Of a stretch of 58,286 nt of DNA, positions 10,514 through 54,808 are shown piece after piece; position 1 is the first letter of the stretch; the number at the start of each line of letters is the position of its first letter. Below the pieces are notes generated by a model. That model was not told where the DNA came from. It searched no databases and was given only the letters and a program-made list of their open reading frames with translations. The translations under genes and the position numbers were made by a program. This DNA comes from Corallococcus sp. AB011P (lineage in GTDB: Bacteria; Myxococcota; Myxococcia; Myxococcales; Myxococcaceae): assembly GCF_003611605.1 (NCBI RefSeq), contig NZ_RAVX01000011.1:196811-255096 (forward strand), read 5' to 3'.

Positions 10514-10538
10514 AACCTGTCCGACAGTCCGACAGGTT
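10514..10538. repeat. Second copy of the 25-bp palindrome (AACCTGTCCGACAGTCCGACAGGTT), 140 bp from the first.
   Basis: Read directly from the sequence. It has one mismatch relative to the first copy. Confidence 0.9.
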
Positions 10539-10655
10539 CGTGCGGTGCGCCTCCATGGAGGGGCCCCAGTCGGGCTCCCACCTGTGCATCCACAGGGACG
10601 GAGTCCGTGTCCCGGGGCGTGAGGCAGCGCTTGTTCAGGCGCATCGAGGCGGGGC

Positions 10656-18757: not shown

Positions 18758-18767
18758 GGCCGTCTCT

Positions 18768-19705: not shown

Positions 19706-19723
19706 GGCGTGTGCGTCCTCTCG

Positions 19724-20599: not shown

Positions 20600-20600
20600 G

Positions 20601-21092: not shown

Positions 21093-21116
21093 GGCTTCAC
21101 TCCTCGAATGGAGACG

Positions 21117-24007: not shown

Positions 24008-24017
24008 CCTCCTGGTT

Positions 24018-25976: not shown

Positions 25977-25999
25977 GCGAAACGACCCTCCAGGGCAAC

Positions 26000-26248
26000 G
26001 CCATGTCTGGTTTCAAGCTGCTGCGTCACGGCACCCCCCGGCACCCCGCAGAAACGCCCATTTCCCGCTGTGACACGCGAAGGGCGGCGACAATGAATCA
26101 GGAGCCCGGCCGGCGTCAACACTGCACGCATGTATTGATTTGATATTTTGTGTGTCTATTCTGACGAGTTTCCCATACCGACGGGAGGGTGGATCGTGGT
26201 GGTTGTCCGCTGCGTCGCAAACCACCTTTGCCGGAGGAGGAACGGTGG
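26000..26248. promoter_or_regulatory. Divergent promoter region between the tail-like operon (minus strand) and the DUF1622 gene (plus strand). It contains an AT-rich island that stands out in the high-GC context.
   Basis: 26130..26180 reads gcatgtattgatttgatattttgtgtgtctattctgacgag. GGAGGAGG lies 8 nt before the ATG at 26249. Confidence 0.5.
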
Positions 26249-26623: not shown

Positions 26624-26842
26624 CCCAACGGGAGGGCATGCGCGGGACGGTAGGGCCCGGCCCTCTGGCTGTCTGTCATTGGTGCCGGCCAGGCGGCAGC
26701 CGCGCCTCCGGGCCGGTGTGGATTGCCCGTGGGCGTTGGGGATGCACACCCTCCAGATCAGGCCACTCCCATGGTGGGAAGCGGCGTCACGGGGCCCTGC
26801 CTCCAAGCTCGCCGGGAAGGGTCGGGGTCAAAGGAGGCGCGC

Positions 26843-38114: not shown

Positions 38115-38714
38115 ATGGCCATCGCGAAACCCGACTTGCTCGAACTCGAATGCAATTGGCAGACCGGGTTTCAATACCGGCCCGGCTTCCGTGGCGCGCT
38201 GGGGTATCTGCTCGAATGGAATGGCTGCGGGGGGCTGAACCTGACGAAGGAGCTCAGCCTGTCCTCCCCCACGGTGGGTGACTTCGGGCCCACGGCGCAA
38301 TGCATTGGCCTGATTGGACGGCTGTCCATGAATGGCGCTTCCGGTCCCCTGGATTTCAGCGTGTACGTGGGGCGCGCCACCGCGGCCAACGTGCTCAACC
38401 ACTTCGCCAAGCCCTTGGACAACCTGCGGCTGAAGCTGGCGTGGGCCATCATCGACTTCGATGAAGCGGGTGATACCTGGTTCGAAGCCGCCAAGCTGAA
38501 GAGCCCCGCCACCGCCGAGGCGCTGATGGACACCGAGAAGGGCCGCCCCAAGGTCTTCCTGGACAACCAGCCCACCACGCTGGCCACGGACCTGGACATC
38601 CGCTTCCACCGCTTCGACTTCCGGGTGGTGCCCGCACCCAAGAAGAGCACCACCCTGGAGTTCGCCACCAACTCCCAGGAGCGCCGTGTCACCAAGTGGG
38701 GCAGTGACAAGTGA
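38115..38714 (+). CDS. Hypothetical protein (199 aa) lying opposite in orientation inside the T6SS block.
   Basis: It is the real part of ORF 37035..38714; the upstream section of that ORF is an antisense shadow of the TssA-like gene. High GC3 starts at the ATG at 38115 (MAIAKPDLLELECNWQTGFQYRPGF...). An AT-rich divergent promoter lies at 38076..38114. Confidence 0.5.
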   Translation: MAIAKPDLLELECNWQTGFQYRPGFRGALGYLLEWNGCGGLNLTKELSLSSPTVGDFGPTAQCIGLIGRLSMNGASGPLDFSVYVGRATAANVLNHFAKPLDNLRLKLAWAIIDFDEAGDTWFEAAKLKSPATAEALMDTEKGRPKVFLDNQPTTLATDLDIRFHRFDFRVVPAPKKSTTLEFATNSQERRVTKWGSDK

Positions 38715-38771: not shown

Positions 38772-39419
38772 CTACTGGCCGCCTTCCTTGTAGCCCCAGC
38801 TGTACACATCCTTGGCTTCGGAGTTGTGGCTGTAGTGGATGTTGCAGAGGTTCAGCTTGTCCGGGATGACCTGGAAGGTCATCTGGCAGAACTTCACGTC
38901 CGTGACGCCCACGTTCTCCGGCTCACCGACGTGGAGCATCACCTCGTTGCCCTTCTGGTTGATGCGGCCCTTGAGCATGTTGGCTTCGCCGCCAGACTCG
39001 TCGCCCAGGGGGTAGCACTTCTCGAACCACTTGCCCGCGGCGCTGTCCCACTCGCACACCCAGAACACCAGCTTCTTGAGTTCGGTGTTGGTGATGCCCG
39101 TGAAGTCCGGCTTGTTCTCCGGGCTGATGAGCACGGTGAAGTCCATGGGGTCGAGCTTGCCGCCCTCCCACTGGAGCTGGGTAATCAGGCCCACACAGCG
39201 CACGGCGTTCTTCGCGCCGACCTTCTCGATCTTCACCTCGCTGAAGGTCGCCTCACCGTCGAACGGCGTGTAGAAGAGGCCGTTGCTCTTGGGAAAGGAG
39301 CCGTCGTCCTTGCCCAGCCCCTTGATGTCCAGCAGGTAGCCCACCGGGACGTTCTTCTGGGGGCGCTGCTGGATGGTCTGCTGCCAGTCACACGAAATGC
39401 CAAGCGGTCCATCACCCAT
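38772..39419 (-). CDS. Hypothetical protein in the position where hcp is usually found (directly downstream of tssBC); possibly a divergent Hcp/TssD tube protein (215 aa).
   Basis: A GGAGG sequence lies 9 nt before the ATG at 39419. YLLDIKGLGKDDG loosely resembles the Hcp N-terminal f.KidGikGes motif. The length and N-terminal extension are not typical of Hcp. Confidence 0.3.
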   Translation of the reverse strand: MGDGPLGISCDWQQTIQQRPQKNVPVGYLLDIKGLGKDDGSFPKSNGLFYTPFDGEATFSEVKIEKVGAKNAVRCVGLITQLQWEGGKLDPMDFTVLISPENKPDFTGITNTELKKLVFWVCEWDSAAGKWFEKCYPLGDESGGEANMLKGRINQKGNEVMLHVGEPENVGVTDVKFCQMTFQVIPDKLNLCNIHYSHNSEAKDVYSWGYKEGGQ

Positions 39420-41889: not shown

Positions 41890-43143
41890 ATGAACCCAGA
41901 CACACTCGCGCGAGTCCTGTGGCAGGAAGGGCAGACCCTGCTGCCCGAACACTTCCGGGCCCAGGAGGAATCCCTCTCCACGGAGGCCCGGCGCTACGCG
42001 GGCTTCGCGGGCCTGCCGGTGGTGGGCGTGAGCGCGCTGCGTTTCAACGATGTATTGCTCGCCAAGGGCTCGGTGGCGCTGGAGGAATTGACCGCGGTGT
42101 TACCGGGCGGCCACCTGGTGGAGGTGCCGGGCAACGCGGAGGTGACACCGCTGTCGCTCGAGGAGACGGGCCGCATGCGGGTGACGGTGTATCTGCACCT
42201 GCTGGCGGTGCTGGAGCCCCGCGAGGACCTGGCGCCCGCGGGCGGTGAAGCCCCCAGCGTGGTGCGCGCGGGACGGAGGCTGTGCCTGTCGTTGGAGCCG
42301 GTGGTGGACGACACGGTGAGCAGCCTGTCGCTGGCCGTCTTCACCCGGAACGCGGACGGGCCCTGGCAGCTGTCCGCCACGCACCTGCCGCCGCTCTTGA
42401 GCGTGGGGCCCCACCCGTTCCTGGAGCCCCTGTTCGAGCAGCTGGACGGCCTGCTCCAGCAGGCGCAGGGGCAGTTGCGCACGTCGCTGCGCGAAGGCCT
42501 GGTGCGAGGCGACCGGCTGGCCAGCGCGCGGCGGGCGCTGTGCGAGGTGCGAAGCCTCCAGGTGCTGCGCCAGGACATGCGCCACGGCCTGCAGCCGCCG
42601 CCGTACCCGCTGGTGCAGGCGCTGCGGCGGCTGTACTTCGAGACGTGCTGCTACCTGGAGGCGGAGCCGGACGACGACCTGCCCGCGTACGAGCACGAAG
42701 CGCCGGGTCCGGGGATCGCGCGGTGGATGGAGCTGCTCACGCGCGGGTTCCGCCCGCAGGCCAGCCCCCTGTCCTACCGGGTCTTCGACTTCCAGGACGG
42801 CCACTTCAAGCTCACGCCGCTGCCCAGGGAGACGCCGCCGCCGGATGACTTCTACCTGCTGGTGCGCCGGCAGGAGCGGGACCGGCCGCGCTCCATGGAG
42901 GGCGTGAAGCTGGCCAGTCCCCTGCGGCTGCCGGCGGTGCGGCGCCAGGCCTTGAAGGGCGTGCCGTACCGGCACGTGGCCTTCCCGTCGTTCCCCCACG
43001 CCTTCGACGCGGACATCGACTGGTACCAGCTGACGCCCCAGAGCGAGGAATGGCAGTCCGCGACGCGCGAGGACGGGCTCACGTTCTTCGCCACGCCCGC
43101 GCTCGAAGGGGCGCAGGTGCTCCTCTACTGGCGCAGGGCCTGA
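41890..43143 (+). CDS. tssK: Type VI secretion baseplate subunit TssK, 417 aa.
   Basis: ARVLWQEGQTLLPEHFRAQEESL matches the TssK N-terminal signature (kilW.EGmfL.PQHFQqqdry). Confidence 0.8.
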   Translation: MNPDTLARVLWQEGQTLLPEHFRAQEESLSTEARRYAGFAGLPVVGVSALRFNDVLLAKGSVALEELTAVLPGGHLVEVPGNAEVTPLSLEETGRMRVTVYLHLLAVLEPREDLAPAGGEAPSVVRAGRRLCLSLEPVVDDTVSSLSLAVFTRNADGPWQLSATHLPPLLSVGPHPFLEPLFEQLDGLLQQAQGQLRTSLREGLVRGDRLASARRALCEVRSLQVLRQDMRHGLQPPPYPLVQALRRLYFETCCYLEAEPDDDLPAYEHEAPGPGIARWMELLTRGFRPQASPLSYRVFDFQDGHFKLTPLPRETPPPDDFYLLVRRQERDRPRSMEGVKLASPLRLPAVRRQALKGVPYRHVAFPSFPHAFDADIDWYQLTPQSEEWQSATREDGLTFFATPALEGAQVLLYWRRA

Positions 43144-43170
43144 CGGCGGACCGACGGGGGAACGGCGCGC

Positions 43171-43749
43171 ATGCCCAAGCTCATCTGCATCATCGACATG
43201 GACAAGGAGAAGGGCCTCATCCTCACCACGGAGGACAAGGACGGGAAGATCCTCCAGACGGTGAAGATGGACGGCGAGGCCATCACCCTGGAGGTGAAGG
43301 GCGACAGCGCCACCAGCACCATCGTGCAGAAGCAGGACAGCGTCACGGTGACCTGCAAGTCCTTCGTGCTGAAGGCGGAGACCATCGAGGTGACGTCCAC
43401 GAAGGCGTCGTCGTGGAAGAGCGACGACACGTTCGCTCTGGAGAGCGCCAAGGCCTTCACGGTCACCACGAAGGACGCGCTGACGCAGACAGCGGCGAAG
43501 GACGCGACCCTCTCCTCGGACGAGGCCGTGACGCTGAAGGCGGCGAAGAAGTTCACCGTGGAGGGTGACGACATCCAGGTGGAGGCCAAGAGCGGCGCGG
43601 TGGCGTTGAAGGCCCCGTCCGTCAAGGCGGAGGGACAGAAGGACATCGCCATGGAGGGAGCGCAGGTGAAGGTGACCGCGAAAGCGAAGCTGGCGCTCAA
43701 TGCGGACGGCGTGGCGGAACTCAAGGGCAGCATGGTGAACGTGGGCTGA
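43171..43749 (+). CDS. Hypothetical K/T/A-rich protein with a repetitive beta-strand motif (192 aa) between tssK and tssL.
   Basis: High GC3. It has periodic segments (VTLKAAKKFTVEGDDIQVEAKSGAVALKAPSVKAEGQKDIAMEGAQVKVTAKAKLALNADG). It has no transmembrane segment and no signal peptide. Confidence 0.5.
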   Translation: MPKLICIIDMDKEKGLILTTEDKDGKILQTVKMDGEAITLEVKGDSATSTIVQKQDSVTVTCKSFVLKAETIEVTSTKASSWKSDDTFALESAKAFTVTTKDALTQTAAKDATLSSDEAVTLKAAKKFTVEGDDIQVEAKSGAVALKAPSVKAEGQKDIAMEGAQVKVTAKAKLALNADGVAELKGSMVNVG

Positions 43750-43761
43750 CGGGGGGGCGCG

Positions 43762-44400
43762 ATGAAGCTCGAGCACTGGCAGGTCGTCTTCACGCAGTAC
43801 CGGCAGGCCCAGTCCGTGCTGGACGGATGGCTGCCGCAGGCCGCGCCCGGGTCGGCCGCGGCGGCGGGGCTTTTGGGCCGCGAGGGCCTGCGCAGGCTCC
43901 ACGACGAGCTCCTGGAGGTGATTGAGCGGCTGCGCGCGGGCCTGGGCGCCCACGCCCGCGACGAGGAGGTGCAGGACGCGCTGCGGCCCTTCACGTACCT
44001 GGTGGACGAGCGCGTCCTCCTGCGGCTCGCGGACGCGGAGCAGCCGCTGTGGCCGCTGTTGCAGTACCGCCTCTTCGGAGAAGACGGCGGCGGCGAGGCC
44101 TTCTACACGCTGGCGGATCAACGGCTGGATCAGCCGGGCTCCCCCGCGCTGCTCTTCGAGATGCTCCACTTCTGCATCACTGCGGGCTTCGGAGGCCGCT
44201 ACCTGGGCCACACGGCGAAGCTGCGCGAGTACCAGGAGCGGCTGTCCGCGCGCATCGTCACGCCCCCGCCGCCGCCCGCCCCCGCCGCGTCCGGCGAGTC
44301 CATCGGGCCGCTGCTCTACGCCTTTCCCGCCCGCTACTACGCCGTCAGCGCCGCGAGCGTGCTGGGGCTGCAGGGCCTGCTCTGGTGGGTGACCCGGTGA
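43762..44400 (+). CDS. tssL: Type VI secretion membrane subunit TssL (DotU family), 212 aa.
   Basis: LLFEMLHFCITAGFGGRY matches the DotU motif (lLElyylCLsLGFeGrY). A C-terminal transmembrane helix reads YYAVSAASVLGLQGLLWWV. Confidence 0.8.
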   Translation: MKLEHWQVVFTQYRQAQSVLDGWLPQAAPGSAAAAGLLGREGLRRLHDELLEVIERLRAGLGAHARDEEVQDALRPFTYLVDERVLLRLADAEQPLWPLLQYRLFGEDGGGEAFYTLADQRLDQPGSPALLFEMLHFCITAGFGGRYLGHTAKLREYQERLSARIVTPPPPPAPAASGESIGPLLYAFPARYYAVSAASVLGLQGLLWWVTR

Positions 44401-44714
44401 AGCCACAAGCCGCCGCACCCCAGGCTCCGGCCGCGGCCACGATCGACGCGGCGCCCGCGCTGCTCCAGGAGGTGCGCAAGACCGTCGCCGCGCGCCTGGG
44501 GGTCGGGCGCCATGGCCTGGAGCCGATGCTGGACGAGCTGGGCCAGACGCTGGCCCGCCTGATGCCGGGGCCGGGTGACGCGCGGTTGTCGCCGGAGGAG
44601 CAGGAGAAGGCGAGAGCGTCGTTCGCGGGCACGGTGGACACGCTGGAGGACGTCCTGGAGGCCCTGCATCGCGCGGGTCGGGCTGGGAACGTCCTGGGCT
44701 GGGGGGAGCGCTGA
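44397..44714 (+). CDS. Small hypothetical protein (about 105 aa; GTG start overlapping the tssL stop) between tssL and tssM.
   Basis: The frame VKPQAAAPQAPAAATIDAAPALLQEVRKTVAARLGV... has a clear GC3 bias. It is the real part of ORF 44049..44714. Confidence 0.4.
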   Translation: MKPQAAAPQAPAAATIDAAPALLQEVRKTVAARLGVGRHGLEPMLDELGQTLARLMPGPGDARLSPEEQEKARASFAGTVDTLEDVLEALHRAGRAGNVLGWGER

Positions 44715-44717
44715 GCC

Positions 44718-47700
44718 ATGGATGTCATCAAGAAACTGATCGCGTTCATCCCACCGAAGTGGAAGCCCTACGCGCTGCTCCTCGTGGCGCTGCTGGCCAT
44801 TGGCATTCCGCTGTTCCTCGTGTGGCGCGCGAAGCGCAAGAGCGCGCCGGCCGGAGGGACCGCCGCGCCGGAGCCCCTGGCGAAGAACCGGCTGCGCAAG
44901 GTGCGCGAGAAGTTCCTGGCCGGGCTGCCCCTGCGCCACCGGGTGGCGGTACGGGACCTGCCGGGTGTGGTGGTGATGGGGCCGGCGGGCGCGGGCAAGT
45001 CGCGGCTCATCGAGCTGGACCTGGACTGGAAGCGGCAGGCGCGGCAGTTCCTGCCCAGCCTCCTCACGGACTCGCTGCTCCAGGTGTACCTGGGCGCGGA
45101 CGTCGTCGCCCAGGAGGTGTCCCCGCAGCTGTTGGAGGACGAGTCGCCCCAGGCGCGCGAGGCCCTGCGCCGGCTGTGGAGGGACAGCTTCGGCGGCGGT
45201 CAGCAGGCGCTGGCGGTGCTGGTGCTGGACGCGCGCTGGCTGCAGGACACGCCCCCGGACGAGGTGCGCCGGGCCGCGCAGCTGTTGCGAGGCAAGCTCA
45301 ACCTGCTGGCGGAGGTCCGCGGGGGCGCGTTCGAGACGCGCGTGTGCCTCACCCACCTGGATGAGCGCGAGGGCTACGCGGACTTCGCGAAGCTGCTGCG
45401 CGCGCACCACGTGCCGCTGCGCTTCCCCCTGCCCCCGCCCGGCCAGGAGGGCAAGCTGGGCTCGCTGCTCAAGGCGCAGGAGCAGTACCTGGCGCTGGGC
45501 CTGACGGCGCTGCCGGTGGAATCCTTCGAGCGGCTGGAGCGCTTCTATTCGGAAGGCCACGCGCCCTTCGAGGCGCTGTCGCGCTTCGTGACGGCGCTGA
45601 TGGAGGGCCAGACGCTGGCGTACGCGCCCCGGCTGGCCACGGTGTCGCTGTCCTCCGCGGACAAGGACGCGAGGGATCCGGACGTCCTCTCGGTGTCCGC
45701 CGAGGCCAGCACGGCGCGAGCGGTCCACGACCGCTACCTGCACACGCACCTGCGCCGGGCGGTGCTGCTGGGCCTGGCGTTCGCGCTGCCGCTGCTGGCC
45801 GCGTACGGGCACTTCGCCTGGAGGCTGGGCCAGGCGAGCACGCGCGTGCAGCGCTTCGAGGACATGGTCCAGCGCATGCGCGACCAGGGGCAGGCGGTGT
45901 CCGGGGCCGCGGTGCAGGAGCCGGTGCTCGCGGCAGGCCACTCCCTGGACTCGCTGTGGAGCGCCATGAACACGTGGCCGCTCTTGCGCTACAGCTTCAC
46001 CGGCGCGCGAGAGGACCTGCGCCAGCGTCTGGCCCGGGGCATCCGCGAGGCGCACATCCGGCCCGCGCTGGAGAAGTGCCACCGCCAGCCGGACACGTGC
46101 CGTCCGGAGCAGGTCGTCTACCTGCTGGCCACGTTGCACGGCTCGCGCGAGGAGCCGCTGGGGCAGCTGGTGCTGTCCAGCCTGAAGACGCGCCCGAACT
46201 GGAGCTTCGTGTCGGAGGGAGGCACGGCCGAGCCCGCGGGCGACGTGGCGGCGCTGGAGGCAGGACGCTCGTGGGTGACGGCGGTGGGGCTGAACGAGTC
46301 CCTGGTGGCCGACTACGTCACCATGAGCAACCCGCCGTGGTCCGCGCCGGACACGCCCGAGGCCAGCTGGGCGCGCTGGCCCTTCCCGGAGCCGCTCACG
46401 CTGGAGGCGCAGCTGATGCCGTGGCAGGCGCACCTGCGGCGGTTGCAGGACCTGCTGGCGAACCGGGCCGTGGAGCCGCGCGAGCTGGAGCGGCTGGACG
46501 CGGACCTGGAGGCCATGCAGGACGAGCGCCGCAGGCTCCAGGCGCTGCTGGACGACAGCGCGCGCTTCAGCAGCCTGCCGCGAGCGTTGGAGCTCCTGGC
46601 CGCCTCCGAGGCGCGCGTGGACACCAGCCGCTTCCGGGGCATCCCCTCCACGCTCAAGACGGTGGCGTGGATCAACGACCACCGGGACGCGCTGACGAAC
46701 GTGCTGCGCATGGAGGAAGAGGCGTACCTGGGTGTGAAGGCGGTGCAGAAGATGACCGTGGCGGAGCTGCTGGTGCGCGACGGCCTGTGGCTGCCGGGCA
46801 ACGGCCCCGCGGTGCTCCAGGTGCCGGTGCTCCAGAGCACCTTCGAATTCCGGCCCAAGGACGGCTCGCGGCTGCTGCACCAGGCACTGCTGCGCTACCA
46901 CGAGAAGACGGGGCGCCTGCCCTTCGGCGTGATGGAGGGCGAGGAGGCGGTGGCGTCGCGCAGCGGCGCGACCCTGGCGGCGGACCGGCTGGAGTTCGAC
47001 ACGCGGCTGCGCCCGCTGGTGGACGAGTTCACCACGCGAATCAAAGGCGCGGGGCTGCCGGTGGAGGAGGTGTCGCAGCGCCAGGAGCACGTGCGCCGCA
47101 AGGTGAACCAGTTCGCGTACCAGTACCGCAACCGCCTCTTCCAGCGCGTGTCCACCTACCGCTTCCAGGCGGTGATTCCGGCGCTCCTGGCGGAGGAGCT
47201 GTCGCGTCTCACGCAGCCGTCCTCGGAGCTGGTGGACATGCTGCGCGACGTGGCGCAGGGCGTGGCGCTGGAGCCGTTGGACGGGCCCTTCTACGAATCG
47301 CTGCGCAACGCGGTGGCGCCGTTCAAGCCCATCGCCACGGTGATGAAGCCGGACGAGACGGGCAACTACACCGCGCTCAACCCCTACCGCGCGCTGGTGG
47401 CCCAGATGTCGGACGAGCTGAACGCGGTGCCCCGTCCGGGCGTGGTGCCCGCGGAGGCGACGGCGTCGCTCAACGGAGGCCTGGCCACCGGCAGCGCGCA
47501 GCCAGCGAGCGGGGCCGCGAAGCTTCCGGAGCTGCTGACGCCGCTGGGGCGCCTGGCCTTCGCGATGATGCTGGAGGACGACACGTCCTACCTGCGCAAG
47601 GTGGACGCGTGGCTGGACCAGCAGGGGCTCATCGGAGAGCTGCGGCAGCCCTTCCGTCAGCCGTTCCTCGCGGTGCGCGAGCTGGGGCAGCGCGAGATTG

Positions 47701-48419
47701 AGAGGACCCTGGAGCGGCAATGGGACGACGCCTCGGGTCGGTTCCTGCGTCCGCTCTTGGGGCGCTATCCGTTCACGCCGGACGCGTCGCAGGAGGTGGA
47801 TCCGGGAGACCTGGAGGTCCTGCGCAAGCAGGACGGAGCGTTCTGGGAGTTCGTGACGCGGGTGCTGGCGCCGGTGTGCGAGGAGCGAGGCTCGGAGTGG
47901 GTGGCGCGAGGCGCGCTCCAGTCCCGGCTGTCGTTGCCGCAGGGGATGTTGCCCACGCTGGGGAGGCTGTCGCGGCTGGCCCGCATGTTGTGGGACACGG
48001 AGGGGAGGCCGCGGCCACTGATGCTGCAGGTGATGCCGTTGCCACTGCCGAAGGCACCCACGCAGGGCAGCTTCGTGACGCTGGGTTCGCTGAAGTGCGG
48101 CAAGACGACGTTCCTCGCGTACAACCAGAGTCCGTCGTGGCAGGAGTTCCCGCTGGCGTGGTGGGACCAGCAGACGGCGTCGCTGATGCTGGAGGTGCGA
48201 GCGCCCGCGGACCAGTCGGTGCAGTACGCGTCGCTGGAGAAGTCGCGTTCGGCGTGGAGCTGCTTCCGGCTGCTGGAGTCGTCCCAGTCCACGGAAGACC
48301 CGCAGCACCGCCGTTGGTCGTTGAGAGCGCGAGGCGCCACCTCCACGGACGGGGTGATGGACCTGCGCTTCGGGCTCAAGGGTGAGCCCTGGATCCCGTT
48401 CCGCGAGGTGCCGCGATGA
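44718..48419 (+). CDS. tssM: Type VI secretion membrane subunit TssM (IcmF), 1233 aa.
   Basis: N-terminal transmembrane helices (YALLLVALLAIGIPLFLVW). Walker A is GPAGAGKS. The size matches IcmF. The gene overlaps tssJ by ATGA. Confidence 0.85.
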   Translation: MDVIKKLIAFIPPKWKPYALLLVALLAIGIPLFLVWRAKRKSAPAGGTAAPEPLAKNRLRKVREKFLAGLPLRHRVAVRDLPGVVVMGPAGAGKSRLIELDLDWKRQARQFLPSLLTDSLLQVYLGADVVAQEVSPQLLEDESPQAREALRRLWRDSFGGGQQALAVLVLDARWLQDTPPDEVRRAAQLLRGKLNLLAEVRGGAFETRVCLTHLDEREGYADFAKLLRAHHVPLRFPLPPPGQEGKLGSLLKAQEQYLALGLTALPVESFERLERFYSEGHAPFEALSRFVTALMEGQTLAYAPRLATVSLSSADKDARDPDVLSVSAEASTARAVHDRYLHTHLRRAVLLGLAFALPLLAAYGHFAWRLGQASTRVQRFEDMVQRMRDQGQAVSGAAVQEPVLAAGHSLDSLWSAMNTWPLLRYSFTGAREDLRQRLARGIREAHIRPALEKCHRQPDTCRPEQVVYLLATLHGSREEPLGQLVLSSLKTRPNWSFVSEGGTAEPAGDVAALEAGRSWVTAVGLNESLVADYVTMSNPPWSAPDTPEASWARWPFPEPLTLEAQLMPWQAHLRRLQDLLANRAVEPRELERLDADLEAMQDERRRLQALLDDSARFSSLPRALELLAASEARVDTSRFRGIPSTLKTVAWINDHRDALTNVLRMEEEAYLGVKAVQKMTVAELLVRDGLWLPGNGPAVLQVPVLQSTFEFRPKDGSRLLHQALLRYHEKTGRLPFGVMEGEEAVASRSGATLAADRLEFDTRLRPLVDEFTTRIKGAGLPVEEVSQRQEHVRRKVNQFAYQYRNRLFQRVSTYRFQAVIPALLAEELSRLTQPSSELVDMLRDVAQGVALEPLDGPFYESLRNAVAPFKPIATVMKPDETGNYTALNPYRALVAQMSDELNAVPRPGVVPAEATASLNGGLATGSAQPASGAAKLPELLTPLGRLAFAMMLEDDTSYLRKVDAWLDQQGLIGELRQPFRQPFLAVRELGQREIERTLERQWDDASGRFLRPLLGRYPFTPDASQEVDPGDLEVLRKQDGAFWEFVTRVLAPVCEERGSEWVARGALQSRLSLPQGMLPTLGRLSRLARMLWDTEGRPRPLMLQVMPLPLPKAPTQGSFVTLGSLKCGKTTFLAYNQSPSWQEFPLAWWDQQTASLMLEVRAPADQSVQYASLEKSRSAWSCFRLLESSQSTEDPQHRRWSLRARGATSTDGVMDLRFGLKGEPWIPFREVPR

Positions 48420-48928
48420 AACCGTGGGCAAGCTGCATCCCCTTGGCGCTGTGTTTCCTGGCCGCGTGCCAGCCGAGCACGCTGCATCTCAGTGTGAAGG
48501 CCCCGTCAGGGACGAACCAGGGCCGGCCGCTGTACATGCTGGTGCGCAAGGTGGATCCAAAGCAGTTCGCCGTGGAGTCCTACGGCGAGGTCTCCGCGCG
48601 CATCTTCCAGCCGGACGCGGACGTGCTGCTGTCGGCGCTGATCTATCCGGGCACGCTGCAGCGCCTGAAGGTGCCATTGCCGGAGAACGCGCCGGTGGCG
48701 GTGTCGTTCCTCTTCACCGCGCCGGACGGCACCTGGCAGCAGTTCGTCAACACGCCCACGCCAGGCTCGCTGGACATAGAGCTACTCGAAGGGCGCATCC
48801 GCACGGGCACCCAGCCCGCGGCGCCCAAGGAAGGCGACGACGCGGCGAAGCCGCCCGAGCCGCCCGCCGCCCCGAAGCCCCCACCCTCCTCTTCCGCCAA
48901 GGCCCCGGCCCTCCACGCCGAGAACTGA
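48416..48928 (+). CDS. tssJ: Type VI secretion lipoprotein TssJ, 170 aa.
   Basis: A lipoprotein signal with a LAAC lipobox (MKPWASCIPLALCFLAAC). PLYMLVRKVDPKQF resembles the TssJ vRvYQLk motif. The gene follows tssM. Confidence 0.7.
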   Translation: MKPWASCIPLALCFLAACQPSTLHLSVKAPSGTNQGRPLYMLVRKVDPKQFAVESYGEVSARIFQPDADVLLSALIYPGTLQRLKVPLPENAPVAVSFLFTAPDGTWQQFVNTPTPGSLDIELLEGRIRTGTQPAAPKEGDDAAKPPEPPAAPKPPPSSSAKAPALHAEN

Positions 48929-48937
48929 GGTCGCCTC

Positions 48938-51900
48938 ATGCAACGCATCCTGTACATCCTGACGGCTGCACTGTGCGTCCTGACCGCCTGTGGTCCCGAG
49001 GCTGAGAAACCACCCACGGTGGCGGACAGCAGGGACACGCGTGTCCAGGTCCGTGCCGCGGCGCTGCGACCCGACGATCCAGTTCCCTCGCTCGAGTTGA
49101 ACGATTACTCCATCGGCTTCGATCCGCAGGCGGCGTGCATGCCGCAGGAGAACTCGCTCACACTGACCAATGCCGGCACCACGGATCGCAAGATCTACCG
49201 TGCGAGCATCACCGGGGGATTCACCTTCAACGGCGTGTACGGCGCGACAGGCCCCCGCTGCGACACCAACTGCAACGTGCCGCCCACGCCCGTCAACGGC
49301 ACGGGCGCAATGACCGTGAGGGTTGGCTTCGCTCCGGTGCAGCCCGGAAACTTCAACGGGACACTGACGCTCTACACGGATGATCCGGTCGCCCCGGTCA
49401 TCACGGTCACGCTGACCGGCACGGCCACGGGCCCGTTGATCGTCGTTGGACAGACATCCGTGGCGTTCGGCGCCCATGAACTGGGCTCGTCACCGCCGCC
49501 GCGCAACGTCACGGTGATGAACCTGGGCAATGAGCCCTTCGCCCTGGCGCCGTCCGTCACCGCCCCCTTCAGCGTGTCCGCCGCCATTGCGAACCTCGCG
49601 CCTGCGACCTCGACGACGCTCGCGGTGACCTTCGCCCCCTTGACCCATGATGACCTGGGCTCCATCACGCGTACGCTCTTCCTGACGAGCGCTTCCACCG
49701 CGTGCGCCACCCCGCCCTCCGTCACTCTCACCGGCATGGGGTTGGCCCCCGCGGAACTCGGCTTGAGCCACACCGCGCTGGTCTTCAACGAGACGCAGCC
49801 GAACGCCACCAGCGCCGCGAAGGAGGTCACGGTCTGGAACAAAGGGGACAGCGTGCTCAACGTGACCCAGTTGAAGCTGCCCGCCAACTCGCCGTTTCAC
49901 GTCACGCCATCGGGAGCCTTCAGCCTCGTGAAGGGAGAGACCCAACGCCTGACACTGACGTTCCGCCCAACGACGGTGGGGAGCTGGGACCACCACCCCC
50001 TCACCTTCGTCATCGATAACACCGACGGGCCAACCATCTCCCTGACATGCAGCACGCCAGTCGTGTCCCCCCCGACGCTCGTGCTCAGCCCCGCGGTGAT
50101 GGCCTTCCCGCAGACGCCGCTGAACACCGACAGCGCCCCCCAGGAGGTCACCCTCCGGAACGAGGGTGGCAGTCCGCTCAACGTGACCGAACTGAAGCTG
50201 ACTTCGGGGGCCGCCTTCCGGGTCGATACCCTGACCGCTTTCAGCGTTGCGCCCGGGGAGACCCGGCGAGTGAAGGTGACCTTCCGTCCAGTTGCGCCCG
50301 GGGGGGCATCCGACACGCTCGTCGTCAAGAGCAACATCCCCGATCAGTCCTTGACTCTGTCGGGCTCCGCGCCATCAAGCCCGAAACTTGTCTTGATTCC
50401 CGATGAGCTGGCTTTCGAGGAGACGCCGTTCGACACCGACAGCGCTCCCAAGGAGGTCACCGTCACGAACGGCGGAGACAGTCTGCTCCAGGTGACCAAG
50501 CTGACATTGCCCGCCAACTCACCATTCCGCGTCAATGTCTCGGGCACATTCAACCTCGCGCCCGGAGGCACCCAGCGCCTTCAGCTGACGTTCCACCCGA
50601 CGGAGACGAGCGCCACGACCGGCAAGCTCACCTTCACCAGCAACGACCCTGCCCCACCTGAACTCAAACTGTCCGGAACGAAGGCACCGGGCAATGCCCA
50701 CCTGACCCTTTCCCCCGCTTCGTTCGAATTCGCCGAACAGGAGGCAGGAGACGTGGGCAGTGAGCAGAAGAAGGTGACGGTGACCAACACGGGAACGGTC
50801 TCTCTGACGGTGACGCCCGTGGTGACCACGGGCAGCAGTGCCTATTCCGTGAGCCCCACCACGGCGTTCCCCCTGGCACCGGGAGGGACACGCGAGCTCT
50901 TCATCACGTTCAACCCCGGCGCCAGTGAGAACGGAGCCGTGAATGGCGTGCTCACCTTCGGTACGTCGCCCACGACGTCCGCCGTGTTCAACGCGCCCCT
51001 CCATGGCACCGCGCGCAAGACTTCGCTGGAAATCAGCACGTCCCGACTGGACTTCAGGGAGTGGACTGTCGGCGACGCGTACCTGACCGAGCAGGTCATC
51101 CTCACGAACAACACCAACTGGCCCATCAAGGTGTTCCCCGTGTCCCCCGGGGTCCTGGCCCCCTTCACGATCTCCGGCATTCCGGCGGAGGGCCGGACCA
51201 TCGAGAGGAACGGTGGCACCGGCCTGGTGACGGTGACCTTCGCCGCGACCACCCCAGGCACATACTCGAAGACGCTCCAGCTCCAAACAGATGCCTCGCA
51301 GTCCCTGCCCCCCGTGGCAATCACCGGACAGGCGCTCGCCCCCAACCTGGAACTGGAAGAAGGAACACTGGAGTTGCCGACCGTGGCCCCCGGAGGAGAG
51401 TCCATGGCCACGGCGAAATTGTTCAACACCGGCAACCAGGCCCTGTTCCTGTCGCGGATCACGCCTGAAAGCGCCGCTCATTTCCAGGTCGTCGACTTCC
51501 TGCCGCAAACAATCCAGCCGGGAGGGGACACCACGGTGAAGGTGCGCCTCCGTCCGATGACCAGCACGGGCAACCTGGAGACGCGGCTGCACTTCTTCAC
51601 CACGAATGACCGGCAGCTTCCGCCCGTGCTCGTCGTCAAGGGTAAATCCAGTGGCCCCAACGCCATCTTTGGCGTGGACTCCCTCGACTTCGAGTCCTGC
51701 CAGGTGAACGCGACCTGTATCAACGACAAGAGCCTGAGTCTCACGAATGCAGTGGGCGCCTCCGAGCCGCTCCGGGTGACGTCGATCGCCATCTCGCCGT
51801 CGGTCTCGGCGTTCTCCGTGGATCCGATTCCCGCCACCGAGCCCAAGCTCGATCCTGGCTCTACGCGTCAGTCGGCCTTCAAGGTGAGCTTCCGCCCGAC

Positions 51901-54808
51901 CGAGGTGGGGAGGCGGTACCAGGACAACCTGGTGATTACCTACAAGGGCGTCGACTCGGGGGTAACCACCACGCGCACCTTTCCCTTGAGTGGCTTGGGT
52001 GCGGATGCGGAGCTGTCCGCGGCTGAAGACGCCATCAATTTCCCCGCCACACTCAAGGACTCGATCAGCGTCATTGACATTGTCATCAAGAATTCAGGCA
52101 AGGTCGAAGCCACGCTTGAAAGCGTGACGGTGTCCCCGTCCAATGGCTTCCTCGCGAATGTGGAGGGCTGGCCGCTCAGAACCATCCCCAAAGGGGGGGA
52201 ACGCAAGATCCGGCTGACCTTCAATCCCACGACGAGCACGGGTTCATACTCCGCGCAGCTCCAGATCAAGCTCACGACCACGCCCACTGGCTCCTTTGCG
52301 CTTGTCCGTGACATGACCGGAGAGGCTTCCATCGCGAAGCTGGAGTTGAGCAGCAGCCAGGTCGTCTTCGGAGAGGTCCCGCGACGGACCACCAAGTCCC
52401 AGATCATCACGCTTCGCAACATCGGGTCCGCGAGACTCAAGGTCAGCAACGTGGAGGCCAACGAGCCCTTCAGCGTGACACCAGTCACCACCGACAAGAC
52501 CTTCCCCCTGTACCTTGACAAGAACGGCGAGCAGAAGATCGAGGTCAGCTTCCGGCCGGAGACGACGCAGCCCACGGACGCGGTCCTGACCGTCCACAGC
52601 GACTCCGACGAGTCCACGGAGCTTCCCATCTACGTTTCCGGCCGGGGAACCGTGCCAGTGCTGGCATTGCCTGGCGGGAGGAATCCCAAGTTCCCGCCTC
52701 AAACCAAGGACGTCGAAGGGACCGGACTGCTCCAGGTGGTGAGGAATGACGGCAAGGCGGACCTGGTCGTTTCCTCCGTGAGCGTTGCCGGGGAGTTCTG
52801 CCTGCGGCCTGAGCCCGAGCCCAATCCCAAGCCCAGCGACTGCCCGCTGACATTTCCTGGATTTACCGTCAAACCAGGAGAGACCTATTCATTCAACGTC
52901 GCAGCCAAGCCCATCGACAAAGGCACGCGCAAAAGCCTGCTCACCATCGTAAGCAACGCGGAGACGACCCCCGACACGGTGAATCTGGAAGTGGAAAGCG
53001 TGGGCAGCGTGTCCATGCCGTCGACGGTGGTCGACTTCGGGCAGGTGAACTTCGGTTCGTCCGTGGACAAACTCGTGACGGTCGACAACTCAGGCATCAC
53101 GGCAGCGAATGTTTCGGTGCAATTCGACTCGGGCAGCTCTGAGTTCTCCATGGTGGACTCGTCACTGCAGGTGCCCGCGGGGCAAACCGCTCAACTCAAG
53201 CTGCGGTTCCGTCCTCTGGGAACGACAGGAGGGCGAAGGACCGCGACGGGAAGGTTGAACGTGCAGGGGGCATCACAGGTCCCCTTCACCGTGTCTGGCA
53301 CGGCCACCTCCGTGCGCTTGGAGGTGTCGCGCCAGGACGGCGAGACCTTTGACGGCGCACTGGACTTCGGGGCCACCCGGGTGAACACGAAGTCGGACTT
53401 CATCCGCCTGCGACTGACCCATGTGGGGCCGGGCGGAAGTGCGGATGCGGGAACGGACGGCGGAGCTGGCAGCAACGAGGGCCTGCTCACCATCAAGAGC
53501 ATCAGTCTGGAGGGGGAAGACGCGAGGTCCTTCATCCTCGGGGGTGTCGCCTCATCCATTGAATTGGCGAAGGGAGGGTTCCTGGACGTCCCTCTCCAGT
53601 TCAATCCCGACAGCCAGAGACGCTTCAACGCGGTCTTGCGCATCACCTCCGACGACAGCCAGTCAAGCACCACCCTGGTGACGCTGGGAGGCCGTGGCCG
53701 GACGAACCAGCTCAGCCTGTCCACGCCCACGTTGGAGTTTGGTGCGCGGGTGGCCGAGTCCTCCGCCTCGGCGATCCGTTCCGTGCGGATCACCAATGAA
53801 TCACTCCAGCCGCTGAAGGTGAAGGGCATGGAGATCATCGGCGTGGCGGAGAACTCCGAGCCGTCGCACTACAGCGTGGAGTCCGCCACTACGCTCACAC
53901 TGGCGGCACAGGAGTCGAAGGACATCATCGTCAAGTTCGTCCCTCGCCCGGACGTGACGTCCAGGGCCGCCCTCCTGATTGTGACGGACGACATTGAGTC
54001 TCCGGAAGCGCAGGTGTCGTTGTCGGGCCGAGGGCTCTCCACGGTGTTCCGGGCGCTCAATCGCGCGCTGGACTTCGGCACCGTGCGCCAGGCGGAGCCG
54101 GCGACGGCGAAGGTGGTGCTCACCAACGACAGCACCCAGGAGCTGGTGCTGATGCAGCCCAAGGTGGAGGGGCCCCAGGCCACGAGCTTCGTGGTGGTGT
54201 CGCCCATCCTGGGAGCGGAGGGCCGCACGCTGCCGCAGGGTGACTCGCTGACGCTGGACCTGAAGTACGACACGTCGGTGATTGGCGCGGCGAAGGCGAC
54301 GCTGGTCCTGGGCACGAAGGACCAGGAGCGCGCGGCGCTGGTGGCCCTGTCGGGTGTGTCCGTGGCCAGCTTCCTGACCATCGAGCCGTTCGAGTTGGAT
54401 CTGGGCTGGGTGGACATTGGCGCCACCAGCGCGCCGCGCACGGTGACGCTCACGAACCAGTCCGCGTCGCCGGCGCGCTTGAGCGTGGTGGAGAACACCA
54501 ACGCGGCGTTCGTGATCGACGCGAGCGCGCTGGACGCGGAGCTGGCGCCGGGAGCGCAGACGACGGTGGGCGTCACCTTCCGCGGCGAGGTGGGAGGCCC
54601 GGCGGAGGGAACGTTGAAGCTGCGCCTGCGCGGAGAGACGACGGCGGAGGCCACGCTCACGCTGAAGGGCCAGGCCCGGACCCTGGGCGGCACGGGCGGC
54701 GGCTGCGCCTGTGGCACCAGCGGGGATGGGGGCGCGGCGTTGGCGCTCCTGCTTCTGCTGGGGTTGGGACTGGCGCGTCAGGGGCGGCGGGCGCAGGAAC
54801 GAGGCTGA
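48938..54808 (+). CDS. Giant cell-surface lipoprotein (1956 aa) with about 17 tandem Ig-like repeats of the ASH / choice-of-anchor-D type and a C-terminal MYXO-CTERM sorting signal.
   Basis: The lipobox is LTACG. A recurring module of about 95 aa carries (V/L)T(V/L)xNxGxxxLxV ... F (for example VTVWNKGDSVLNVTQLKLPANSPFHV, VTLRNEGGSPLNVTELKL, VTVTNGGDSLLQVTKLTLPANSPFRV). The C-terminus GGTGGGCACGTSGDGGAALALLLLLGLGLARQGRRAQERG has a Gly/Cys box, a hydrophobic stretch and an Arg-rich tail, which is the MYXO-CTERM pattern. The gene starts 9 bp after tssJ with a GAGG SD. Confidence 0.8.
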   Translation: MQRILYILTAALCVLTACGPEAEKPPTVADSRDTRVQVRAAALRPDDPVPSLELNDYSIGFDPQAACMPQENSLTLTNAGTTDRKIYRASITGGFTFNGVYGATGPRCDTNCNVPPTPVNGTGAMTVRVGFAPVQPGNFNGTLTLYTDDPVAPVITVTLTGTATGPLIVVGQTSVAFGAHELGSSPPPRNVTVMNLGNEPFALAPSVTAPFSVSAAIANLAPATSTTLAVTFAPLTHDDLGSITRTLFLTSASTACATPPSVTLTGMGLAPAELGLSHTALVFNETQPNATSAAKEVTVWNKGDSVLNVTQLKLPANSPFHVTPSGAFSLVKGETQRLTLTFRPTTVGSWDHHPLTFVIDNTDGPTISLTCSTPVVSPPTLVLSPAVMAFPQTPLNTDSAPQEVTLRNEGGSPLNVTELKLTSGAAFRVDTLTAFSVAPGETRRVKVTFRPVAPGGASDTLVVKSNIPDQSLTLSGSAPSSPKLVLIPDELAFEETPFDTDSAPKEVTVTNGGDSLLQVTKLTLPANSPFRVNVSGTFNLAPGGTQRLQLTFHPTETSATTGKLTFTSNDPAPPELKLSGTKAPGNAHLTLSPASFEFAEQEAGDVGSEQKKVTVTNTGTVSLTVTPVVTTGSSAYSVSPTTAFPLAPGGTRELFITFNPGASENGAVNGVLTFGTSPTTSAVFNAPLHGTARKTSLEISTSRLDFREWTVGDAYLTEQVILTNNTNWPIKVFPVSPGVLAPFTISGIPAEGRTIERNGGTGLVTVTFAATTPGTYSKTLQLQTDASQSLPPVAITGQALAPNLELEEGTLELPTVAPGGESMATAKLFNTGNQALFLSRITPESAAHFQVVDFLPQTIQPGGDTTVKVRLRPMTSTGNLETRLHFFTTNDRQLPPVLVVKGKSSGPNAIFGVDSLDFESCQVNATCINDKSLSLTNAVGASEPLRVTSIAISPSVSAFSVDPIPATEPKLDPGSTRQSAFKVSFRPTEVGRRYQDNLVITYKGVDSGVTTTRTFPLSGLGADAELSAAEDAINFPATLKDSISVIDIVIKNSGKVEATLESVTVSPSNGFLANVEGWPLRTIPKGGERKIRLTFNPTTSTGSYSAQLQIKLTTTPTGSFALVRDMTGEASIAKLELSSSQVVFGEVPRRTTKSQIITLRNIGSARLKVSNVEANEPFSVTPVTTDKTFPLYLDKNGEQKIEVSFRPETTQPTDAVLTVHSDSDESTELPIYVSGRGTVPVLALPGGRNPKFPPQTKDVEGTGLLQVVRNDGKADLVVSSVSVAGEFCLRPEPEPNPKPSDCPLTFPGFTVKPGETYSFNVAAKPIDKGTRKSLLTIVSNAETTPDTVNLEVESVGSVSMPSTVVDFGQVNFGSSVDKLVTVDNSGITAANVSVQFDSGSSEFSMVDSSLQVPAGQTAQLKLRFRPLGTTGGRRTATGRLNVQGASQVPFTVSGTATSVRLEVSRQDGETFDGALDFGATRVNTKSDFIRLRLTHVGPGGSADAGTDGGAGSNEGLLTIKSISLEGEDARSFILGGVASSIELAKGGFLDVPLQFNPDSQRRFNAVLRITSDDSQSSTTLVTLGGRGRTNQLSLSTPTLEFGARVAESSASAIRSVRITNESLQPLKVKGMEIIGVAENSEPSHYSVESATTLTLAAQESKDIIVKFVPRPDVTSRAALLIVTDDIESPEAQVSLSGRGLSTVFRALNRALDFGTVRQAEPATAKVVLTNDSTQELVLMQPKVEGPQATSFVVVSPILGAEGRTLPQGDSLTLDLKYDTSVIGAAKATLVLGTKDQERAALVALSGVSVASFLTIEPFELDLGWVDIGATSAPRTVTLTNQSASPARLSVVENTNAAFVIDASALDAELAPGAQTTVGVTFRGEVGGPAEGTLKLRLRGETTAEATLTLKGQARTLGGTGGGCACGTSGDGGAALALLLLLGLGLARQGRRAQERG

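Follow-up and report, generated by a model that had tools for sequence, protein, structure and literature searches.

A 58,286-nucleotide (nt) stretch of the genome of Corallococcus sp. AB011P (contig NZ_RAVX01000011.1, positions 196,811 to 255,096), hereafter the window, carries a type VI secretion system (T6SS) cluster in which the gene for a giant repeat lipoprotein of 1,956 amino acids (aa) directly follows tssJ. What is such a protein doing at this place? Comparison of sequences places the giant gene in a T6SS-linked family that is conserved yet hypervariable and has a TraB-like companion, and this family joins an already known kind of protein, the T6SS-associated giant lipoproteins. We see an even chance that the giant gene is an accessory gene of a Francisella-like T6SS whose product would form a surface contact or recognition fibre, acting in the manner of TasL of Vibrio fischeri and organised in the manner of TraA/TraB of Myxococcus xanthus.

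The predicted product is a 100% match to the NCBI protein 'choice-of-anchor D domain-containing protein [Corallococcus sp. AB011P]'. The intergenic gap between the tssJ stop codon and the ATG of the giant gene is 9 nt, and a Shine-Dalgarno sequence overlaps that stop codon (Table 1). TssJ is of the IglE type, with 107.8 bits for Pfam IglE_N (cut-off 26) and 37 bits for NCBIfam T6SS_IglE, which is below the cut-off of 75. The N-terminus of the giant protein, MQRILYILTAALCVLTAC directly followed by GPE, consists of a basic n-region (MQR), a hydrophobic core (ILYILTAALCV) and the lipobox LTAC ending in Cys18. The lipobox fits the consensus [LVI][ASTVI][GAS]C as a pattern match, made with no dedicated predictor. 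The residue at position +2 after Cys18 is Gly and not Lys, which is reported as the inner-membrane retention signal in M. xanthus. Among the 18 Corallococcus orthologues, the lipobox is kept in 17, and it is also found in the T6SS-linked proteins P0019, P0020 and P0029 and in the giants of loci L042 and L043.

The C-terminus carries a MYXO-CTERM sorting tag, which is defined by a Cys-containing motif, a transmembrane helix and an Arg-rich tail (PMC11980579). In the giant protein, the three parts read GGGCACG, AALALLLLLGLGLA and RQGRRAQERG. The match to TIGR03901 (aa 1920-1951 of 1956) scores 21.7 bits, just over the cut-off of 20, and the tag is almost invariant across the 18 Corallococcus orthologues. 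The notion that the giant protein might itself be a T6SS substrate or effector was rejected on account of its Sec/lipoprotein signal and its surface-sorting tag.

Between the two signals lies a long array of Ig-like domains. The NCBIfam model choice_anch_D (NF012200) matches the giant protein in 16 stretches with 426.2 bits (cut-off 45), and the Pfam matches include HYDIN_VesB_CFA65-like_Ig (323 bits), ASH (211 bits), DUF1573 and Cep192. The fn3 family is absent among the 17 Pfam families matching at E ≤ 0.01, and scans with Pfam and NCBIfam gave no match to PA14 or to a Cys-rich repeat. The boundaries of the repeats were set with a hidden Markov model (HMM) grown out of one repeat of the giant protein itself. 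This model delimits 17 domains (R1 to R17) with start-to-start distances of about 97-131 aa, linkers of 3-10 aa and an xVTVxNxG core; a long insertion is found in R14. An AlphaFold2 model of R9-R11 is all-beta, with a predicted local distance difference test (pLDDT) score of 87.6, and its best matches in the PDB, found with Foldseek, are the ASH chains of HYDIN/CFAP proteins (9ijj, 7som and 7sqc, E about 1e-14) and the SPD-2 domain of CEP192 (7ptb). The giant protein belongs to the choice-of-anchor D/ASH-type Ig-like proteins, a family for whose bacterial members we know of no function.

The repeats inside this copy are old. Their mean pairwise identity is 23% and the maximum 50%, so recent intragenic duplication is not seen. 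At the DNA level, similarity was detected only among R3-R5, where it is weak (65-71% identity over 137 nt). Both recent duplication and concerted evolution of the repeats were rejected on these grounds.

The genes around the giant gene are arranged as a tight co-directional array: tssK, a 27-nt gap, the gene for a 192-aa VgrG-like protein, a 12-nt gap, tssL, an open reading frame (ORF) of about 105 aa, tssM, tssJ, the 9-nt gap, the giant gene, a 28-nt gap and a gene for a 617-aa protein. All gaps of the array are 28 nt or shorter, and the array ends at a convergent pentapeptide-repeat gene (56700..57608, minus strand). TssK scores 320 bits with TIGR03353, TssL matches DotU and TssM gives weak IcmF matches. 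No terminator-like site was found at the junction between tssJ and the giant gene (there are 3 such sites over 9.5 kb vs 6.8 expected), and no stable hairpin either, the RNA fold of nt 48880-48990 having a z-score of 0.00 vs shuffled sequence. A scan for sigma-70 promoters found nothing, such a scan being uninformative for myxobacteria. Membership of the giant gene in the T6SS operon is well supported by sequence and comparison, and the gene is probably co-transcribed with tssJ.

The 617-aa protein encoded downstream contains a GHSHG (GxSxG) motif and has a weak Abhydrolase_1 match; searches of PDB, PADLOC and NCBIfam gave no match. The protein is 90% identical in Corallococcus coralloides KYC2213. 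At the same position, other Corallococcus strains have different Lipase_3/phospholipase-like genes with partners, a transposase and a Tle1/DUF3304 pair. Since different lipase or phospholipase genes are found from strain to strain, the region after the giant gene appears to be a strain-variable effector island.

In order to follow the giant gene across taxa, homologues of TssJ were aligned and one genome per species was then scanned for loci. The TssJ of the window has 156 homologues, all with PF22361, and no M. xanthus protein is among them. These proteins split into two lineages, one of 63-98% identity (lineage 1) and the other of about 50% identity (lineage 2). This type of system is spread across Cystobacterineae, and some genomes hold both lineages. 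A giant ORF stands directly after tssJ in 9/9 lineage-1 loci with enough downstream sequence, which come from three Corallococcus, two metagenome-assembled genomes of Myxococcaceae, Vitiosangium, Archangium lansingense, Pyxidicoccus fallax and Myxococcus sp. K38C. Each of these giants combines a lipobox with 10-20 choice-of-anchor D repeats, two of the ORFs being cut by the contig end, and a MYXO-CTERM-type tail is found wherever the C-terminus is present. The gaps between tssJ and the giant gene range from 9 to 127 nt (9-10 nt in L001-L003 and L007), each with a GAGG-like Shine-Dalgarno sequence.

In lineage 2, no such repeats were found within 10 kb of tssJ, and giants of the same architecture are located at the cluster head in loci L037, L038, L039, L042 and L043. 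The best relatives of the giant protein outside Corallococcus, P0026 (2,564 aa), P0019 (3,151 aa, 27 repeats) and P0029 (2,029 aa), are all encoded at this other end of lineage-2 clusters. They adjoin the AMP-binding-like gene, the DUF4280 gene and the genes for IglI and TssB/C, and all three have MYXO-CTERM tails. For P0135 (TssJ of M. hansupus) and P0022 (a giant of Archangium), look-ups of gene context gave no entry. The number of repeats is 15 to 21 within Corallococcus and 23 to 27 in lineage 2. Because the giant gene follows tssJ in lineage 1 and stands at the cluster head in lineage 2, its association with the T6SS appears to survive cluster rearrangement. The linkage spans two lineages, opposite cluster ends and at least six genera.

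The original prediction, made from the letters of the window and a list of its ORFs, had described a gene starting 9 bp after tssJ behind a GAGG, a lipoprotein signal, tandem Ig-like modules and a MYXO-CTERM tag, and had placed the gene in the T6SS plus-strand operon. All of these features were recovered: the gap and the GAGG are seen at the junction, the lipobox ends in Cys18, the family HMMs recognise both the modules and the tag, and the operon assignment agrees with the short gap, the Shine-Dalgarno sequence, the lack of a terminator at the junction and the linkage in every lineage-1 locus that could be read far enough.

The giant gene also leaves its mark on draft genomes. In five draft Corallococcus assemblies (loci L004, L005, L006, L008 and L009), the contig ends at the 3' end of tssJ or no more than about 400 nt past it, and several giant orthologues (P0003 and P0005) are found alone on contigs of 6-9 kb. 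This means that short-read assembly breaks on both sides of the giant gene. The Pro/Ala-rich, GC-rich tail of tssJ or the repeats may be the cause.

The T6SS of the window can be assigned, with reservations, to a Francisella-like (T6SS-ii-like) type and not to the canonical M. xanthus type. The IglI-family protein (37092..38075) passes its model with 240 bits vs a cut-off of 100, and the IglG-like DUF4280 PAAR-like protein (31944..32432) is below the IglG cut-off (59 bits vs 200). The 192-aa VgrG-like protein (43171..43749) has weak DUF2345 and T6SS_TssI_Fran matches and is below the cut-off of the Francisella VgrG model (17 bits vs 100). TssE, TssF, TssG and TssM match their models weakly; TssB, TssC and TssK match canonical models strongly. 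ClpV was sought within the window, as distinct from the whole genome, and was not found there. The canonical M. xanthus T6SS is encoded by MXAN_4800-4813, with tssJ at 4801, tagF at 4805 and vipA at 4807. The second tssJ lineage was considered as a representative of this canonical type and rejected, since it shares its IglI, DUF4280 and AMP-binding-like genes with the cluster of the window.

Two further proteins of the cluster deserve mention. A 560-aa protein (30364..32046, plus strand), encoded directly before the DUF4280 PAAR-like gene, has only a weak N-terminal AMP-binding (acyl-CoA ligase-like) match; it is present in all clusters of this T6SS type, always at the head, and is 51-60% identical in metagenome loci. 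An unannotated 215-aa protein (38772..39419, minus strand) is encoded downstream of tssC, in the position of an Hcp/IglC-like tube protein. A paralogous match with 26% identity lies at 38139..38702 (plus strand), about 100 nt away and apparently on the opposite strand, in a lower-GC stretch (GC, guanine-cytosine).

The giant protein varies much more than the core of the secretion system. Within Corallococcus, TssK, TssL, TssM and TssJ are 91-98% identical to those of the window vs 59-61% for the giant protein; between genera, the values are 58-75% for these four core proteins, 41-49% for the small VgrG-like protein and 27-36% for the giant. Mean identity to the 17 orthologues is 81-91% for R15-R17 with the tag, 64-70% for R6-R8 and 40-54% for R9-R13, where no orthologue exceeds 64%. 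Taken domain by domain over the whole hypervariable block R9-R14, mean identity is 40-58%, and no single match exceeds 72%. The identities themselves run to 81-95% for R15-R17 with the tag and to 32-63% for R9-R14, and the stretch from about aa 900 to 1560 is 35-60% identical between Corallococcus alleles. Identity to the closest protein, P0002, is 88-100% up to about aa 600, 73-81% up to about aa 900, 35-58% up to about aa 1560 and 78-98% thereafter; the two abrupt breakpoints, at about aa 900 and 1560, correspond to about nt 51,635 and 53,615.

In a comparison of 18 Corallococcus alleles, the variable block falls into three allele classes (A, B and C), which are 67-94% identical within and 40-52% between classes, and the allele of the window is an outlier of class B (58-60%). 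The N-terminal domains fall into other classes, incongruent with those of the variable block. P0002 is 94% identical to the giant of the window in R1-R5 and 41% in R9-R13, P0014 is class B-like at the N-terminus and class A in the middle, and proteins labelled C. exiguus are spread over different allele classes. The sharp breakpoints and the module-incongruent allele classes indicate that the variation of the giant protein comes from old alleles recombining module by module.

When R9-R13 was searched exhaustively, nothing closer than the Corallococcus alleles came up, and an origin of the variable block outside the genus was rejected on this basis; the same search returned 2,588 choice-of-anchor D giant representatives at E < 1e-3. 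A homologue search with the C-terminal module (aa 1575-1956) gave 7 weak matches and missed even the Corallococcus orthologues, hence it is uninformative.

The GC-content of the giant gene is distributed unevenly, from 65.3% in R1-R8 to 61.7% in R9-R13 (51629-53272) and 69.9% from R15 to the C-terminus. The rest of the window has 71.4 ± 3.6%, and only 2.4% of the other 300-nt intervals are at or below 62%. The original prediction of 50-58% GC for the central repeats was too low, as 62.1% was measured for 51600-53400; the lowest 300-nt interval in the giant gene has 57.0%, and values below 58% occur in 1/112 such intervals. Its estimate of about 68% for the flanks fits the upstream side (tssJ 69%, tssM 71.5%) and fails downstream, where the gene for the 617-aa protein has 57.9%. 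The mosaic GC profile that it described survives as a graded dip on sliding-window GC, the size of which had been overstated, and the low-GC segment is bracketed by the two allele breakpoints. Of the two origins that it offered, recombinational turnover is borne out by the cross-strain mosaic and the breakpoints, and horizontal acquisition from outside the genus is unsupported.

About half of the gene-wide GC deficit is due to amino-acid composition, with GC at the first codon position (GC1) of 0.59 vs 0.72-0.77 in tssK, tssL and tssM, and about half to GC at the third codon position (GC3), 0.84 vs 0.94-0.95. In the last 700 nt or so of the giant gene, GC3 is back to 0.91-0.96, and for R15-R17 it is 0.87-0.95. 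Across the orthologues, GC3 in the variable block ranges from 0.78 to 0.97 and is low only in this allele and one other, so low GC3 was rejected as a general trait of the block.

A possible partner of the giant protein is encoded at the far end of the cluster. The only NCBIfam match of this 346-aa protein is exchanger_TraB (E 2.9e-5, 22 bits), colinear with residues 55-288 of 522 of TraB. The protein shares 50-55% identity (E 4e-97 and 6e-93) with the N-terminal domain of OmpA-domain proteins of about 490 aa encoded beside the giants of lineage 2. For the latter, TraB is the best-scoring family (90-100 bits), and their N-terminal halves alone match only TraB (E 1e-9 to 1e-11). As these scores are far below the TraB cut-off of 700, the relation of the window protein to TraB is best described as remote homology, not orthology. 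A metagenome scan with an alignment of the TraB-like domains revealed two more loci, L042 and L043, in which the TraB-like gene is divergently adjacent to the gene for a 2,862-aa giant (26 repeats, lipobox, MYXO-CTERM), followed by the T6SS head. The TraB-like genes of lineage 2 are accompanied by a Big_2/beta-helix protein of 580-885 aa. A remote TraB homologue appears to be a recurrent accessory of these T6SS clusters, usually beside the giant gene, and the 346-aa protein of the window is a candidate outer-membrane partner of the giant protein. A single-sequence AlphaFold2 model of the 346-aa protein had a pLDDT of 35.7 and was unusable.

Among characterised proteins, the nearest functional precedent is TasL of the V. 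fischeri T6SS2, a large lipoprotein encoded in a T6SS cluster, on which contact and the choice of targets depend (Speare et al. 2022, PMC9040878). For other bacteria, the same paper names further large lipoproteins encoded close to a T6SS cluster, among them MXAN_4798 of M. xanthus. MXAN_4798 and MXAN_4799 are called accessory genes in a 2026 study, according to which no targeting specificity mechanism is known in M. xanthus (PMC13310138). Like the giant protein, TasL is a very large predicted outer-membrane lipoprotein of a T6SS cluster built of repeated beta-sandwich modules, and its predicted reach is up to about 70 nm. A role in cell contact for T6SS killing, with strain bias, has been shown for TasL and is proposed here for the giant. 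The repeats of TasL are FN3-like, whereas those of the giant protein are of the choice-of-anchor D/ASH type with no fn3 match; at this level of repeat types, the two proteins have no domain family in common. TasL is encoded by a stand-alone gene between divergent and convergent neighbours, whereas the giant gene is coupled to tssJ by 9 nt. The giant differs further by its MYXO-CTERM tag, its defined hypervariable recombining block and the TraB-like gene in its cluster. With TasL as the functional precedent, the idea of an adhesin for target-cell contact is plausible.

The organisation of the locus recalls TraA/TraB. TraB is a beta-barrel and OmpA outer-membrane partner of TraA, a polymorphic MYXO-CTERM kin-recognition receptor, and the two act 1:1; the specificity of TraA sits in its polymorphic domain, and its membrane-proximal end is predicted to rest on the TraB barrel (PMC12045341). 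In both systems there is a MYXO-CTERM protein of the cell surface (predicted in the case of the giant), polymorphic within the species and with a conserved membrane-proximal part; the candidate partner encoded with the giant is remotely related to TraB. In TraA, however, the variable domain is PA14-like, is placed at the N-terminal tip and is accompanied by a Cys-rich stalk, and the giant protein has 17 Ig-like domains, a variable block in the middle and an N-terminal lipobox. Unlike traAB, the giant gene is set in a T6SS cluster, and unlike TraB, the TraB-like protein of the window has no OmpA domain. Homology of the giant protein with TraA was rejected in the absence of any PA14 or Cys-rich repeat match.

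Cryo-tomography of the M. xanthus T6SS revealed 'antennae', fibres of about 60 nm extending from the outer membrane in numbers of 1-6 per machine, to which no protein was assigned (Chang et al. 2017, bioRxiv 10.1101/108233). Their length is close to the 60-75 nm calculated for the giant protein; however, the imaged machine was the canonical one, and the system of the window is the different, Francisella-like T6SS. Extracellular structures tied to a contractile weapon, with Ig-like stems for prey contact, are also formed by the Aureispira T6SS-iv antennae and the GhpA grappling hook (bioRxiv 10.1101/2024.01.29.577165). This likeness is one of description; the Aureispira structures come from another phylum, are exported by type 9 secretion and form ordered heptameric or C6-symmetric assemblies. 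Generic choice-of-anchor D/ASH proteins (NF012200; HYDIN/CEP192-type) share both family and fold with the giant protein and number in the thousands in soil bacteria, but most are without the combination of lipobox and MYXO-CTERM and without T6SS context. Full-text searches found no literature linking choice-of-anchor D proteins to type VI secretion. Judging by titles and abstracts, none of the papers combining MYXO-CTERM with T6SS, or myxobacteria with T6SS and IglE, seemed to describe the giant family.

If the giant protein is a T6SS contact fibre, the following course of events can be proposed. The precursor would be exported by Sec and lipidated at Cys18 through the lipoprotein pathway, and C-terminal processing would comprise lipidation of the tag Cys, cleavage by the myxosortase MrtX and surface display dependent on type II secretion. 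Surface display of TraA depends on myxosortase and the type II secretion system, and the lipoprotein pullulanase is cited as a precedent for export of a lipidated protein by the latter (PMC11980579). The 17 Ig-like domains would then be presented outside the outer membrane as a long flexible fibre. One Ig-like domain is 3.5-4.5 nm long, and multiplication by 17 gives the 60-75 nm for an extended chain. With both lipidated ends in the same membrane, the fibre would form a loop of about half this length with its apex near R9, where the variable block begins.

The two termini and R15-R17, because they are conserved, would make up the attachment end, which may dock on the TraB-like outer-membrane protein. 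R9-R14, exchanged between strains by recombination, would face and contact other cells. The fibre would thereby hold or recognise neighbours, so that the co-expressed T6SS and the downstream lipase-type effector could act on them. Surface display, topology, partnership with the TraB-like protein and a role in contact or recognition are all parts of this proposal. In a bolder and more tentative version, the giant and the TraB-like protein would constitute a TraAB-like allele-specific recognition module, physically joined to the T6SS as its external 'antenna', in which R9-R14 picks kin, non-kin or prey; we consider this version doubtful. If it were true, the giant protein would be a natural targeting receptor for a T6SS and a candidate identity for the unexplained myxobacterial T6SS fibres.

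Several observations weigh against the giant protein as a T6SS contact fibre. The ratio of nonsynonymous to synonymous divergence (dN/dS) is 0.5-0.96 in the variable block (0.15-0.40 in the conserved domains) and exceeds 1 in no domain. Taken separately, dN is 0.46-0.72 in R9-R11 vs 0.04-0.05 in R16-R17, and dS is 0.5-1.4 in the variable block vs 0.13-0.23 in the conserved domains. With dS this high in the block and no ratio above 1, positive selection was rejected as a demonstrated fact, and the variation can be put down to relaxed constraint and old allelic lineages no less readily than to diversifying selection. Two relatives are encoded away from any T6SS: P0036, which has the full architecture with lipobox and MYXO-CTERM, and P0025, a choice-of-anchor D giant with neither signal. 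The fold itself is therefore not T6SS-specific. In locus L044, the TraB-like gene adjoins the T6SS head, and the 3.2 kb of sequence that could be read contain no giant gene. The TraB match of the window protein is remote, and the protein is devoid of the OmpA domain. It is unusual for a protein to be lipid-anchored at both ends, and the topology that would follow is conjectural. Finally, the giant gene borders a variable effector island where unrelated cargo could accumulate.

Of the alternatives, the one that holds up best is a general surface adhesin or matrix protein, encoded at the edge of the T6SS cluster and serving attachment, gliding or biofilm formation with no tie to secretion. Choice-of-anchor D giants are common, as the large number of representatives retrieved with R9-R13 testifies, P0036 and P0025 are not T6SS-linked, and the giant gene adjoins the strain-variable, lower-GC effector island. 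We nevertheless find this explanation unlikely. The linkage recurs in both lineages, at opposite cluster ends and in at least six genera, and the closest relatives outside Corallococcus (P0019, P0026 and P0029) are all T6SS-linked. Moreover, the coupling to tssJ on one side and the T6SS-type lipase gene on the other put the giant gene inside the putative transcription unit.

Likewise unlikely, and ranked just behind, is a kin-recognition receptor in place of a prey adhesin. The giant and the TraB-like protein would then form a homotypic pair, with matching R9-R14 blocks restraining or redirecting the T6SS and a mismatch permitting attack. The MYXO-CTERM tag, the strong intraspecific polymorphism confined to one block, the modular recombination and the TraB-like gene in the same clusters are all in line with such a pair, given that specificity of TraA resides in a polymorphic domain and that TraA works 1:1 with TraB. 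In addition, the T6SS is a major kin-discrimination system in M. xanthus, where no mechanism of targeting specificity is known (PMC13310138). However, the giant protein has neither the PA14-like variable domain nor the Cys-rich stalk, its TraB-like companion is only remotely similar to TraB, and TasL, the only tested precedent, is heterotypic.

The variation could also be driven by enemies, the giant protein being an exposed receptor for phages, bacteriocins or rival cells and the block a means of escape and not of target recognition. The deep allelic lineages, raised dN and dS and recombination fit this explanation, deep allelic lineages with recombination being the usual pattern of phage-receptor and surface-antigen genes. 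It leaves the constant linkage to the T6SS and the TraB-like gene unexplained, and we know of no phage or bacteriocin that uses such a protein; we regard it as improbable. It is in any case compatible with a T6SS contact fibre and does not exclude one. Least probable is an internal structural part of the T6SS envelope complex, lipidated at the N-terminus beside TssJ and spanning or scaffolding the periplasm and outer membrane with its Ig chain: although the giant, like TssJ, is a lipoprotein, its gene comes right after tssJ and TssM matches canonical models so weakly that extra envelope parts are conceivable, its 15 to 27 repeats and hypervariable sequence contrast with the 91-98% conservation of true structural subunits, and its extended length is far beyond the width of the periplasm.

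How a T6SS chooses and holds its targets is little understood, and TasL in Vibrio is the one tested natural contact factor. The locus described here offers a genetically tractable candidate family, consisting of a conserved T6SS accessory with sorting signals at both ends, a bounded exchanged cassette and a TraB-like putative partner. If the proposal of a contact fibre is true, the logic of kin recognition (a polymorphic receptor with an outer-membrane partner) would be linked to contact-dependent killing. If it is wrong, there is still clear modular recombination in a repeat protein and a Francisella-like T6SS with unusual accessories in Myxococcota.

Table 1. Positions of the giant gene, its parts and the other features discussed, in the window unless a locus is named.
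Feature	Position	Strand	Remarks
Giant lipoprotein gene	48938..54808	+	ORF and translation; ATG start, 1,956 aa, stop codon included
Lipoprotein signal peptide with lipobox L-T-A-C	48938..48991	+	aa 1-18, Cys18; read from sequence
17 tandem ASH-type Ig-like (choice-of-anchor D) domains	49058..54637	+	aa 41-1900
Hypervariable block R9-R14	51629..53659	+	aa 898-1574; also GC minimum
Conserved membrane-proximal R15-R17	53678..54637	+	aa 1581-1900; pairwise mean identity 87%
MYXO-CTERM sorting tag	54695..54790	+	aa 1920-1951; GGGCACG motif, hydrophobic helix, Arg-rich tail
Junction of tssJ and giant gene	48927..48937	+	GAGG Shine-Dalgarno 48927-48930 overlapping tssJ stop, then 7-nt spacer to ATG
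IglE-type TssJ lipoprotein gene	48416..48928	+	4-nt overlap with tssM end; TGA stop 48926-48928
Upstream T6SS genes: tssK, 192-aa small VgrG-like, tssL, ORF of about 105 aa, tssM	41890..48419	+	gaps ≤ 27 nt
617-aa gene, probable lipase-type T6SS effector	54837..56690	+	ATG at 54837 behind GAGGGAG; 28 nt after giant gene
TraB-like secreted protein, 346 aa	29327..30367	+	other end of T6SS cluster from giant gene
TraB-like OmpA-domain genes	L037 5795..7282; L038 2254..3726; L039 4681..6156		adjoin giant gene
Contractile system, sheath	21680..24007	-	
Contractile system, two gp19-type tube genes	20601..21680	-	
Contractile system, CIS_tube	18768..19496	-	
Contractile system, GPD hub	17292..18566	-	
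Contractile system, Baseplate_J	13154..16921	-	
Contractile system, P2_I/Kelch protein	6377..10249	-	
Contractile system, protein of >2,272 aa with DUF6519 and beta-helix	runs off left edge of window	-	

Besides the T6SS cluster, the window contains a second contractile system (1..26012, minus strand), which looks like a phage-tail-like extracellular contractile injection system. It is located about 3 kb from the T6SS cluster, with the gene for a PAS histidine kinase (26723..29164) between the two.

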